DNA of 9,709 bases, taken from a virus (taxonomy: Duplodnaviria > Heunggongvirae > Uroviricota > Caudoviricetes). The first letter of the stretch is position 1; each line of letters begins with the position of its first letter. Shown here piece by piece: positions 316 through 9,709 of this stretch. A program made the position numbers and the translations under genes. The stretch lies in IMG/VR virus record IMGVR_UViG_2529292908_000016; one strand, 5' to 3'. The notes under the pieces are model-generated. The model ran no database searches and had not been told where the DNA came from. It saw only the letters and a program-made list of their open reading frames with translations.

Positions 316-701
316 GGTGACAGCCCCTATGTTGAATTCAATGAACTCACCACCAAGGCTTTCCACGACCATATAGGTGGTGAGACGTACAGGGGTGGAA
401 ATACCGGTCAACATAGAACCCGGCCCAACCGAAGTTGGCCCTGCACGCCCCACCATAATTTGGGCGTAACGATGCTCATGACACGAAAAAACCGCATGAG
501 CGCGGTTGTGCTCTATATTGAATTTCGGGTTTCCACGCCCGGCACCCGCTTTATAAGGTGCAGAGACAGTGTAACGTCCCGAAATTGCAGAATCAATATT
601 TGGTCTTGAAATGATCATATAGCTGCTGATATCTTTAGAACTGTTCTTGGATGTTTCAGAGCCGTTTTATGCGAAACAGCTCCCCGTTATTGATGTTGAG
701 T

Positions 702-727
702 GAGCCGGGTTACTCCCGGCTTTTTTT
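702..727 (+). terminator. Rho-independent terminator, plus-strand orientation (GCCGGG-ttact-CCCGGC stem-loop followed by T7)
   Basis: Perfect 6-bp GC-rich stem at 704..709 and 715..720, 5-nt loop, then seven T at 721..727. On the minus strand the same hairpin is preceded by A-run and not followed by U-run, so it is a canonical terminator only for plus-strand transcripts. Confidence 0.6.
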
Positions 728-1769: not shown

Positions 1770-2426
1770 ATGAAGTCTTTAGGTGAACGTCTCATCAACG
1801 CACGGCAAAAAGCTGGGTTAACACAAGATGCGTTGGCTAAAAAAGCTGGGGTCACCAGAGTTGCAATCAGTAAAGCCGAGCAAGGCCTTACAAAAAGTTT
1901 CAACGGTGACACCCTTTTTAAAGTTGCAGCTGCACTGCGGTGTTCACCGCAGTGGCTTCAGAACGGAGATGAAAAAGATAAGCATTGGGAAAATAATGTT
2001 AAGAGCTGCCCACAGAGAGACACAGCACACTCTTACCCTGTAATTAACTGGGTTCAGGCAGGATTATTCGCAACTTCTGGTGATGACTACAACATGTATG
2101 ATCAGGATAATTGGAGGCATTCTGTAAAATACGCTGGTGAGAGGGGGTTCTGGCTGGAAGTGCACGGAGACTCAATGACTTCGCCCGTAGGAATAACATT
2201 TCCTGAAGGAATGTCGATCCTTGTCAACCCAGATAAAGAAGTTTTTTCAGGGTGTTACGTCATCGCCAGAAAAAAATCTACCAATGAAGCAACATTCAAA
2301 AAATATATTTCTGACATGGGAAAGGCGTTTCTAAAGCCCCTTAATCCACAATATCCAATCATAGAAATGGACAATGATTGCGAAATAGTAGGTGTTGTGG
2401 TTGATGCCAGGTGGGATATTTTCTGA
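1770..2426 (+). CDS. CI/LexA-like phage repressor: N-terminal XRE-type HTH plus C-terminal S24 peptidase (autocleavage) domain
   Basis: Strong Shine-Dalgarno GAGAGGAGA 6 nt before ATG at 1770 (the track ORF begins further upstream at 1695 on a weaker start). N-terminus MKSLGERLINARQKAGLTQDALAKKAGVTRVAISKAEQG is a classic HTH. C-terminus has the S24 hallmarks: an Ala-Gly linker (VQAGLF), GDSM serine motif and a downstream Lys (ARKK). Confidence 0.85.
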   Translation: MKSLGERLINARQKAGLTQDALAKKAGVTRVAISKAEQGLTKSFNGDTLFKVAAALRCSPQWLQNGDEKDKHWENNVKSCPQRDTAHSYPVINWVQAGLFATSGDDYNMYDQDNWRHSVKYAGERGFWLEVHGDSMTSPVGITFPEGMSILVNPDKEVFSGCYVIARKKSTNEATFKKYISDMGKAFLKPLNPQYPIIEMDNDCEIVGVVVDARWDIF

Positions 2427-8106: not shown

Positions 8107-8343
8107 ATGGGCAATGTGATTCAACTGGCTCCCAATGAATGGGTTTGTGAAAGCGTTCTTATCGCAATTACCGGGCTCAAACCAGGCACAATTCTTCGGG
8201 CCCGGAAAGAATGCTGGATGGTTGGAAGAGAGTATATTCACGTATCACCAGACGGTAATCCAAAGCCTTCCAGTGAATGTATGTATAACAGAAAAGCAAT
8301 AGATGCCTGGGTCGCCTCAATGAAAAACAAACAACCCAGGTGA
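8107..8343 (+). CDS. xis: Excisionase-like small DNA-binding protein (78 aa)
   Basis: GAGGT Shine-Dalgarno 5 nt before ATG at 8107. Lies immediately upstream of the integrase on the same strand, with size and basic/aromatic composition typical of winged-helix excisionases. The call rests on position and composition, not a verified domain hit. Confidence 0.65.
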   Translation: MGNVIQLAPNEWVCESVLIAITGLKPGTILRARKECWMVGREYIHVSPDGNPKPSSECMYNRKAIDAWVASMKNKQPR

Positions 8344-8398
8344 TTTAATATCATGAAATATGTAAGCTCGTATCGCTCTTGGGCGTCTGGAGGTATCG

Positions 8399-9709
8399 AT
8401 GGATAAAGTCAAATATCCAACAGGCGTCGAAAACCACGGCGGCACATTACGCATCTGGTTTAATTTTAAAGGTAAACGTGTCAGGGAAAATCTTGGTGTC
8501 CCTGACACTGCCAAGAACAGGAAGATCGCCGGGGAACTGCGGACATCAGTATGTTTTGCCATCCGCACAGGAAGCTTTGATTATGCTGCACAGTTCCCTG
8601 ACTCCCCCAACCTTCAGGCTTTTGGGGTAAGTAAAAAAGAAATTACGGTGAAGGAACTTGAAGAAAAGTGGCTGGATCTGAAACGAATGGAAATCTCTGC
8701 AAATGCATTCAATCGCTATGAATCCGTTGCAAGAACGATGGTTCCGAAAATTGGAGGCAGTAGACTGGTGTCATCGGTAACCAAAGAGGAATTGCTGTAT
8801 ATCAGGAAAGATTTGCTGACCGGGTATCAGAATTCAATGAAAAACAAAGCAGCAAAAGGACGGAGCGTTGTTACTGTAAATTATTACATGACGACAATCG
8901 CTGGAATGTTTCAGTTTGCTGCAGATCACGGTTACTTAGAAGCAAATCCCTTCCAGGGAATTAAGCCTCTTAAAAGAGCCAGGGCAGAGCCAGATCCGCT
9001 AACTCGTGACGAATTTATTCGCCTGATAGATGCTTGCCGACATCAGCAGACGAAAAACCTGTGGTCATTGGCTGTGTACACAGGAATGCGTCACGGTGAA
9101 CTGGTCTCCCTGGCCTGGGAAGATATCGATCTGAAGGCAGGAACAATTACCATCAGGCGCAATTATACGAAACTTGGTGAGTTCACTCTACCGAAAACTG
9201 AAGCAAGCACAAACAGGGTTGTGCACCTTATCCAGCCCGCTATCAGTGTCCTGAAAAATCAGGCTGAAATGACAAGACTGGGTAAGCAGTACAACATCAA
9301 GGTGCAACTACGTGAATATGGACGTTCAGTGAACCATGAATGTACTTTCGTGTTTAACCCTCAAGTGGTTAGAAAAAGCGAACAGGTAGGTTTTGTCTAC
9401 AAAGTCGATTCTGTAGGTGACTCATGGGAAACAGCCATTAAGCGTGCAGGGATCAGGCATCGAAAGGCATACCAGTCACGACACACTTATGCGTGCTGGT
9501 CATTATCTGCCGGAGCAAACCCAAGCTTCATTGCCAGCCAGATGGGCCATGCAAGTGCCCAGATGGTATTCAATGTATACGGAGCATGGATGACTGACAG
9601 CAATGCAGAACAGATCGCAATGCTGAATCAGAAGCTGACAGATTATGTCCCAATGATGCCCCATAGTCACCAAAGTGACACCAGAGGCTTATTAAAATCA
9701 GTAAGTTAA
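8399..9709 (+). CDS. int: Tyrosine-type site-specific integrase (436 aa)
   Basis: GGAGG Shine-Dalgarno 5 nt before ATG at 8399. Catalytic-domain hallmarks are present: TGMRHGEL (box I Arg), SRHTYACW (H-x-x-R region) and MGHASAQMVFNVYGAW (catalytic Tyr). The N-terminus YPTGVENHGGTLRIWFNFKGKRVREN looks like an arm-type DNA-binding domain. Stop TAA is the last codon of the window. Confidence 0.9.
   Translation: MDKVKYPTGVENHGGTLRIWFNFKGKRVRENLGVPDTAKNRKIAGELRTSVCFAIRTGSFDYAAQFPDSPNLQAFGVSKKEITVKELEEKWLDLKRMEISANAFNRYESVARTMVPKIGGSRLVSSVTKEELLYIRKDLLTGYQNSMKNKAAKGRSVVTVNYYMTTIAGMFQFAADHGYLEANPFQGIKPLKRARAEPDPLTRDEFIRLIDACRHQQTKNLWSLAVYTGMRHGELVSLAWEDIDLKAGTITIRRNYTKLGEFTLPKTEASTNRVVHLIQPAISVLKNQAEMTRLGKQYNIKVQLREYGRSVNHECTFVFNPQVVRKSEQVGFVYKVDSVGDSWETAIKRAGIRHRKAYQSRHTYACWSLSAGANPSFIASQMGHASAQMVFNVYGAWMTDSNAEQIAMLNQKLTDYVPMMPHSHQSDTRGLLKSVS

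Follow-up and report, generated by a model that had tools for sequence, protein, structure and literature searches.

We propose that positions 600-727 of the window, by which we mean the whole 9,709-nt stretch of viral DNA analysed, form a self-contained, accessory small-RNA gene of the 'moron' type, lying within the early-right operon of a lambdoid prophage of E. coli and encoding a plus-strand RNA of about 85 nt. Judged from sequence, we regard this as probable, though far from certain. The cassette behaves like a moron in that it has its own candidate promoter and its own terminator, runs in reverse orientation to its surroundings and is only optionally present. A sequence-only reading of the same DNA had suggested a plus-strand RNA of about 80 nt at this site, and a promoter-to-terminator unit of about 85 nt, with elements kept in three alleles, appears to be the best reading still.

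The cassette sits in a recognisable immunity region (Table 1). Integrase and excisionase genes at 8107-9709 are followed by the early-left genes and then by a LexA-type repressor gene (1770-2426, plus strand). On the minus strand, divergent from the repressor, lie in order a 75-aa gene in the cro position, a 235-aa gene, the cassette and an isrK-C4-Rha module, beyond which fuller homologous loci carry small genes and replication genes. This gene order marks the minus strand as the early-right operon, so that the candidate RNA runs against the operon. The 235-aa product matches PHROG phrog_63, 'anti-repressor Ant' (3e-46), and is referred to as Ant-like below. Its gene also contains a perfect 12-nt inverted repeat (CAATTTCCACAG / CTGTGGAAATTG, 1 nt apart, 1287-1311), a candidate that may bind a protein. 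In the intergenic region between the repressor and cro-like genes (1659-1769) we observed three copies of the half-site GATACT(T/A)(T/A)(G/A), which are probable operators; nothing similar was seen in the cassette.

Table 1 Coordinates of the features discussed, numbered along the plus strand of the window.
Feature	Position	Strand	Details and basis
Candidate -35 hexamer, TTGAAA	606-611	+	Promoter-like site scan
Candidate extended -10, TG(A)TATCTT	627-635 (hexamer 630-635)	+	18-bp spacer from the -35
Predicted small RNA, ~85 nt	642-727	+	Deduced from promoter/terminator geometry
Conserved core GTTCTTGGAT, candidate seed	643-652	+	Invariant in the three-allele alignment, at the predicted RNA 5' end
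Middle hairpin SL1, GAGC-C-GUUUU [AUGC] GAAAC-A-GCUC	659-682	+	Predicted fold, allele A
Intrinsic terminator	703-727	+	7-bp stem (6 G-C), loop TTACT, T7
Ant/Rha-like winged-helix gene, 235 aa	727-1434	-	Weak Pfam Phage_pRha and HTH matches
isrK promoter	561-596	-	-35 TTGATT (591-596), 17-bp spacer, -10 TACACT (568-573), start G561; read from sequence
IsrK sRNA	485-561 (terminator 486-507)	-	Rfam RF01394, 61.6 bits, gathering score 50
c4-a1b1, weak match	522-574	-	Rfam
C4 antisense RNA	373-460	-	Rfam RF01695, 82.4 bits, gathering score 45
a sites, GUGGAAA	530-536 (in IsrK), 360-366	-	Read from sequence
a' site, UUUCCAC	395-401 (in C4)	-	Read from sequence
b sites, UUCAAUAUAG and UUCAACAUAG	513-522 and 327-336	-	The second touches the Rha Shine-Dalgarno
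b' loop, GUUCUAUGUUGA	408-419	-	Read from sequence
Rha antirepressor gene	ATG at 315	-	Rha-domain protein
GATACT half-sites	1676-1681; 1716-1721 and 1740-1745	+; complement	Read from sequence

The plus-strand terminator already noted in the sequence-only reading, with its stem, 5-nt loop and T7, was recovered and proved unique in the window. Its stem is formed by AGCCGGG (703-709) and CCCGGCT (715-721), and the T-run (721-727) ends on T727, with which the stop codon (727-729) of the minus-strand 235-aa gene begins. A consensus scan for terminator-like sites ranked this hairpin first (8 pairs including G-U, 6 G-C). When both strands of the window were scanned more strictly (a minimum of 7 Watson-Crick pairs and 5 G-C pairs, with 6 or more T in 7), it was the only site on either strand, and the same scan returned 0 sites in 100 dinucleotide-preserving shuffles of the window. 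On the minus strand A7 precedes the hairpin and CACTCAAC follows it; since no T-run comes after the hairpin there, the terminator is one-way and serves the plus strand. Across copies the stem is near-constant, one variant keeping the pair as a plus-strand U-G wobble, whereas several loop sequences occur (among others TTACT, TCACTA, TCACAC and TGACTA) and the run holds 6-8 T.

The promoter-like elements claimed previously, TTGAAA and TATCTT with an 18-bp spacer, are present as described, and the -10 hexamer is in addition preceded by the TG of an extended -10. A promoter-like site scan of the window found 17 sites against 15.3 expected by chance, and the 606-635 site, with a hexamer match of 9/12, is not significant alone. 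It is the only one of the 17 with a TG before the -10, and the scan found no other plus-strand promoter-like site in 1-605. Support for the candidate promoter comes from conservation across alleles (A, B and C, described below), not from the site score. TTGAAA is kept in all three, one TTGGAA variant having been seen, and alleles B and C carry TG(G)TATTTT at the same 18-bp distance from the -35; the spacers of A and B are identical at 10 of 18 positions. The minus-strand ORF that overlaps the -35 differs between A and B in 4 of its first 6 codons after the ATG (MIISRPN vs MNVSSLN), and because all of these changes alter the amino acid, coding constraint does not explain the conservation of the -35. 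The candidate promoter stands back-to-back with the isrK promoter, whose start falls on position 1 of the isrK model in Rfam. Only 9 bp separate the two -35 hexamers, which places the candidate -35 45-50 bp upstream of the isrK start, and an upstream element of the isrK promoter may account for some of its conservation. A LexA box, as found at lambda pO, was sought in 541-779 with a best match of 11/20, and no cI-operator-like repeats were seen in the cassette, a repeat search giving only short, low-significance matches.

To survey variation, we searched E. coli genomes, phage records, IMG/VR and metagenomes, including gut metagenomes, for the stretch from the isrK promoter flank to the stop codon; the 14- and 16-base patterns used were too unspecific against IMG/VR, and matches were filtered afterwards. 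The cassette measures 128 bases in the window and 122-134 bp across homologous prophages, and only three alleles, plus point variants, were found. Allele A is that of the window and most copies, B occurs for example at locus L004 and in E. coli SE11, and C is represented by L193, L241 and L366. All three keep both hexamers with their 18-bp spacing, the motif TGnTAT(C/T)TT, the core, a middle hairpin and the terminator, as well as GTTGAG(T/C)G followed by a GCCGGG/CCCGGC stem with varying loops and 6-8 T. The promoter spacer, the SL1 sequence, the linker and the terminator loop differ, and about half of the interior bases have changed. A small transcription unit would be expected to show this pattern, which supports an RNA gene more than any other observation here. 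The sequence-only reading had proposed looking for a preserved promoter-to-terminator arrangement in homologous prophages, and the hexamer spacing, core and terminator are indeed retained while the interiors diverge. In the MAFFT alignment the three SL1 versions fall out of register, and with n=3 alleles the covariation statistics are weak.

The candidate sigma-70 extended -10 promoter (606-635) would start the RNA at about 642, the start being placed 7-8 nt after the -10 and the end in the T-run. The core begins 7 nt after the -10 in alleles A and C, at the predicted start. Alleles A and B have the 14-mer TGTTCTTGGATGTT at 642-655 in common, allele C carries TTCTTGGA-TTCTTGG in tandem at the core, and one C-to-G variant of the 10-nt core was found among metagenome contigs. 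The core is largely unpaired in the predicted fold of allele A and partly paired in those of B and C. In the same place as SL1, allele B is predicted to form GGC-UU-ACUUC[UUUUGU]GAAGU-U-GCC and allele C GGC-CUGC[UUUAU]GCAG-UU-GCC; folding of SL1 is modest relative to shuffles (z -0.3 to -2.5, 5' part). The U-rich linker GUUAUUGAUGUUGAGU precedes the G+C-rich terminator hairpin, and the tail has U7-8, which is the 3' layout of Hfq-type sRNAs. From 5' to 3', the RNA would comprise a possibly single-stranded core (GUUCUUGGAU), the middle hairpin, the U-rich linker, the terminator hairpin and a U7 tail. This is the layout of an enterobacterial base-pairing sRNA and would fit a chaperone-dependent, trans-acting sRNA.

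The covariance-model search proposed with the sequence-only reading assigned the cassette to no family: Rfam 15 models run on alleles A, B and C at gathering and permissive thresholds gave as best match sroD, which scored 24.5 bits (gathering score 50) and was driven by the terminator, and alleles B and C likewise gave only weak, terminator-driven matches. The Rfam models for AgvB, AsxR, Esr41, STnc100 and DicF did not match the cassette, nor did RF01695, RF01394 and RF03163 match 600-727 in any of the three alleles. In a full-text search, the RNA and DNA strings of the cassette occurred in 0 papers.

The plus strand upstream had been described as full of stop codons, which is inaccurate: a 131-codon ORF at 214-609 lies there, antisense to Rha, C4 and IsrK, and ends at the candidate -35 hexamer. 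We rejected this ORF as a real gene and regard it as spurious, given its absence from other carriers of the same cassette and its antisense position to IsrK, C4 and Rha. A short frame opening with an ATG inside the predicted RNA reaches the terminator without a stop codon, and allele C has lost this ATG. With the one frame not conserved and the other lacking a stop, no plus-strand protein gene could use the terminator.

We considered whether the terminator might act solely as an insulator that stops stray plus-strand transcription from entering the Ant-like, cro-like and cI genes, next to a weak or incidental promoter and a functionless RNA. Such a role would suit a strong, unidirectional terminator that points towards cI from the edge of the immunity region, and a promoter match that by itself is at chance frequency. 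We nevertheless think it unlikely, since without another plus-strand promoter-like site upstream there is little to insulate against save the adjacent promoter, a bare terminator does not explain the conserved hexamers, TG and spacing or the core at the predicted start, and prophages with a DUF4222 gene in the slot do without such a terminator.

The hairpins could alternatively belong to minus-strand RNA, as a stabiliser, processing site or protein-binding site in the Ant-like read-through or 3'-untranslated RNA, in which case the T-run would be merely an A-run upstream of the hairpin. Both SL1 and the terminator hairpin fold equally well in minus-strand RNA, the hairpin begins directly after the stop codon, and two SL1 point variants (window A658 and a GGAAC variant) pair only on the minus strand. 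Set against these, three other wobble-type substitutions keep pairing only on the plus strand, a split of 3 to 2 between the strands, the hairpin is not a terminator on the minus strand as no U-tract follows it, and both the plus-strand T7-8 run of all alleles and the plus-strand promoter elements would be left unexplained. A minus-strand element is, in our view, quite improbable.

The distribution of the cassette was assessed among 5426 complete E. coli genomes with a query consisting of the two cassette flanks only. Both flanks were found 110-121 nt apart in 263 genomes, while about 1340 contain the isrK promoter flank, upstream of which there is mostly a DUF4222 gene. The cassette is also present in 9 phage records, Stx2-converting phages among them, and carriers include E. 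coli SE11 at 2159282-2159547 of NC_011415, O157:H7 F6294, ST131 MB1159 and lysogens of Stx2_EH2201-type phages. Its context is always the same, from the isrK promoter flank to the Ant-like stop codon, and its mosaic junctions are sharp, one at ~599/600 and the other at the stop of the 235-aa gene. At four loci (L008, L009, L131 and L133) the same Ant-like gene and isrK-C4-antirepressor module enclose a DUF4222 gene and no hairpin. Absence of the hairpin from prophages that keep both flanking genes had been named in the sequence-only reading as evidence against its proposal, and it is what these four loci present; it characterises the cassette as accessory rather than as a core regulator. As many relatives have DUF4222 instead, the cassette is predicted to be dispensable for control of the flanking genes. 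In other genera, among them Yersinia, Providencia, Proteus and Atlantibacter, distant homologues of the 235-aa gene overlap with the gene downstream, and an intergenic hairpin is missing. In L008, a prophage gene of the ProQ/FinO family (RNA chaperone domain) was observed at 846-1238, between DUF4222 and the Rha gene.

A further arrangement is seen in L006 and phiP27, where the slot holds a Bro-N gene and another plus-strand hairpin abuts the stop codon. Here a plus-strand promoter-like site, TTGATT-18-(TGA)TATTGT, falls in the first Bro-N codons (L006 1430-1527; phiP27, L130, 2330-2426), and a GGCCGG/CCGGCC hairpin with a T-rich run lies at the stop codon of the Ant-like gene. The predicted RNA of about 55-60 nt would cover the Bro-N Shine-Dalgarno and start codon, a sar-like layout; a single sequence version of this arrangement was seen. 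The cassette has no significant similarity to the DUF4222 slot sequence, and only its hairpin resembles that of the Bro-N arrangement.

The constant context of the cassette, the frequent exchange of modules in the slot (DUF4222, Bro-N or nothing) and the similar hairpin at the same stop codon in the Bro-N arrangement would also be expected of a recombination-junction remnant, that is, a non-functional leftover with an old terminator at a mosaic module boundary, carried along by its flanks. We judge this improbable as well, given that three diverged alleles keep exactly the features of a transcription unit although so much of the interior differs, and that no homology to the alternative slot occupants was detected.

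On its other side the cassette adjoins a control module that the sequence-only reading had missed. By its sequence elements, the minus strand at 327-574 is a complete antirepressor control module of the P1 immI and Gifsy-1 IsrK kind; such control of an antirepressor by c4/IsrK is already known (PMC4825925; review PMC12197685). The a/a' and b/b' elements differ between loci yet change together (leaders of L001, L004, L052 and L193). In L004, for example, the b sites read GCAUACGG and the C4 loop CCGUAUGC, and in L052 the b2 site reads GCUCAAGG and the loop CCUUGAGC, with the b1 copy GCUCGAGG. These sequences suggest several C4 immunity specificities among E. coli prophages.

The long ORF from the ATG at 618, which both the sequence-only reading and RefSeq took as the start of Rha, is a translation across IsrK and C4. 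Annotations as 'ash family protein' and 5' extensions of the Rha ORF (316-618 minus in the window; L001 3612-4274; L004 857-1522) run through the two RNA genes, and the Pfam Phage_ASH match covers exactly the IsrK/C4 stretch. In 6/6 diverged leaders compared, the spanning frame nevertheless stays open and shares its phase with the Rha-like ATG downstream, reflecting either a mis-annotation spread by the protein family model or an unexplained constraint. Most close relatives were observed to carry two tandem units, each an isrK-C4 leader with a Rha-like gene (window ~315-560 vs L001 2764-4274). The window and L002 have a single isrK-C4-Rha unit and are 656 bp shorter, a form that looks like the product of recombination between the conserved 5' parts of two IsrK copies.

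The earlier suggestion that the RNA represses translation of the Rha antirepressor in the manner of P22 sar, to which the antirepressor genes on both sides of the cassette and the bracketing of the Bro-N ribosome-binding site by a plus-strand promoter-like site and hairpin in L006/phiP27 lend some appeal, is highly implausible, as it is contradicted by the coordinates (the RNA at 642-727 is upstream of the isrK start and some 330 nt away from that of Rha, and so is not complementary to the isrK-C4-Rha transcripts), by pairing with IsrK or the leader no better than that of shuffled sequences, and by the C4 b' loop/b2 pairing that already covers the Rha Shine-Dalgarno.

Returning to the accessory small-RNA gene, we searched for targets of the predicted RNA. 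Pairing with IsrK, C4 and the Rha leader was no better than with shuffles for alleles A and B and marginal for C. SL1 had seemed to match the first IsrK loop, and the linker the b sites; both matches were dropped because such pairing was no better than that of shuffles. Sites complementary to the 14-mer numbered 3 in the window, including the self-match, against 1.4 expected, which is chance level, and no recurrent site complementary to the 10-mer core was found in 34 carrier loci. The candidate promoter diverges from the isrK promoter, and the RNA is consequently antisense only to read-through from the upstream operon; the earlier description of it as antisense to the region between the two genes therefore holds for that read-through and fails for the isrK-C4-Rha transcripts.

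In cis, the terminator would halt RNA synthesis before it could enter the Ant-like and cro-like genes in antisense towards cI. Over 642-727, the RNA would be fully complementary to a read-through transcript of the cro-like/Ant-like operon, and because of this geometry an oop-like effect can be envisaged, in which duplex formation, RNase III cleavage and interference by convergent transcription act on the read-through. The outcome would be lower stability of the Ant-like mRNA and less read-through into isrK-C4-Rha and the replication genes. The conserved 5' core suggests that there may be additional targets in trans.

A more far-reaching proposal, which we put forward tentatively and consider rather doubtful, is that the cassette represents a family of trans-acting prophage sRNAs not described before, whose three alleles share the 5' seed GUUCUUGG(AU). 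A single divergent promoter region of ~50 bp would then drive the new RNA, IsrK and, by read-through, C4, setting antirepressor expression and reaching mRNAs of the host or of co-resident prophages. The family would be present in ~5% of complete E. coli genomes, with ST131 and Stx2-converting phages among the carriers.

Lambda oop, a 77-nt RNA made from promoter pO and antisense to the 3' end of cII, comes closest among known systems in strand, size and approximate map position. Both have a promoter-to-terminator layout, which for the candidate is read from sequence features, opposite to PR and between a post-cro gene and the replication genes, and in both the terminator prevents, or would prevent, run-on towards cro and cI and the RNA is complementary to early-right RNA. 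The analogy drawn in the sequence-only reading thus stands for strand and rough map position, and it does not extend to homology or to overlap with the upstream coding sequence. Local alignment to oop scores 16 vs 13.5 +/- 2.2 for shuffles, 18% of which score at least as high, and whereas oop overlaps 52 nt of the cII coding sequence (computed geometry), the candidate RNA ends at the stop codon. Moreover, the upstream gene is Ant/Rha-like instead of CII, isrK-C4-Rha precedes the replication genes, and the cassette is optional among close relatives. An ncRNA in the oop position, OOP-BTP1, has been seen by RNA-seq in the Salmonella prophage BTP1 (PMC7067206).

P22 sar (68-69 nt) is likewise a small opposite-strand RNA of an antirepressor region with an intrinsic terminator between two genes. 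However, sar covers the ant ribosome-binding site, whereas the candidate covers none in the window, and the slot variant of L006/phiP27 is closer to sar than the window is. With regard to P1/P7 c4 and Gifsy-1 IsrK, the candidate is an immediate neighbour that would share a divergent promoter region, all being small RNAs of antirepressor loci. Unlike C4, IsrK and c4-a1b1, it lies on the other strand, matches no model and has no significant complementarity to IsrK or the leader.

Lambdoid prophages of EHEC carry convergent sRNA genes at moron sites, namely AgvB, AsxR and other EcOnc RNAs (PMC4104026), and the Pas sRNAs are also prophage sRNAs (bioRxiv 10.64898/2026.05.13.724894). The candidate resembles the EcOnc and Pas sRNAs in its short length, its terminator hairpin followed by poly-U, its allelic variants and a 5' part that varies or may bear a seed, and in being accessory, patchy among E. 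coli and oriented against the surrounding operon. However, the EcOnc, Pas and AgvB sRNAs, published from prophages of EHEC and EPEC, belong to the late or structural region (downstream of PR', near Q, lysis and structural genes), whereas the candidate lies in the early-right/immunity region. Opposite-strand small RNAs of lambdoid prophages are well known, and the cassette is a plausible new prophage sRNA gene rather than a new principle.

The analysis corrects the local annotation, in that both the 'ash family protein' and the extended form of the Rha ORF are translations that cross two RNA genes of Rfam. If transcribed, the cassette would add an unannotated small RNA to the immunity/antirepressor region of a type of prophage that occurs in 263 of 5426 complete E. 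coli genomes and among Stx2-converting phages. The candidate RNA adjoins the IsrK/C4 switch that controls the antirepressor and hence prophage induction, and, once made, it could modulate early-right read-through or act on host genes like other prophage sRNAs.
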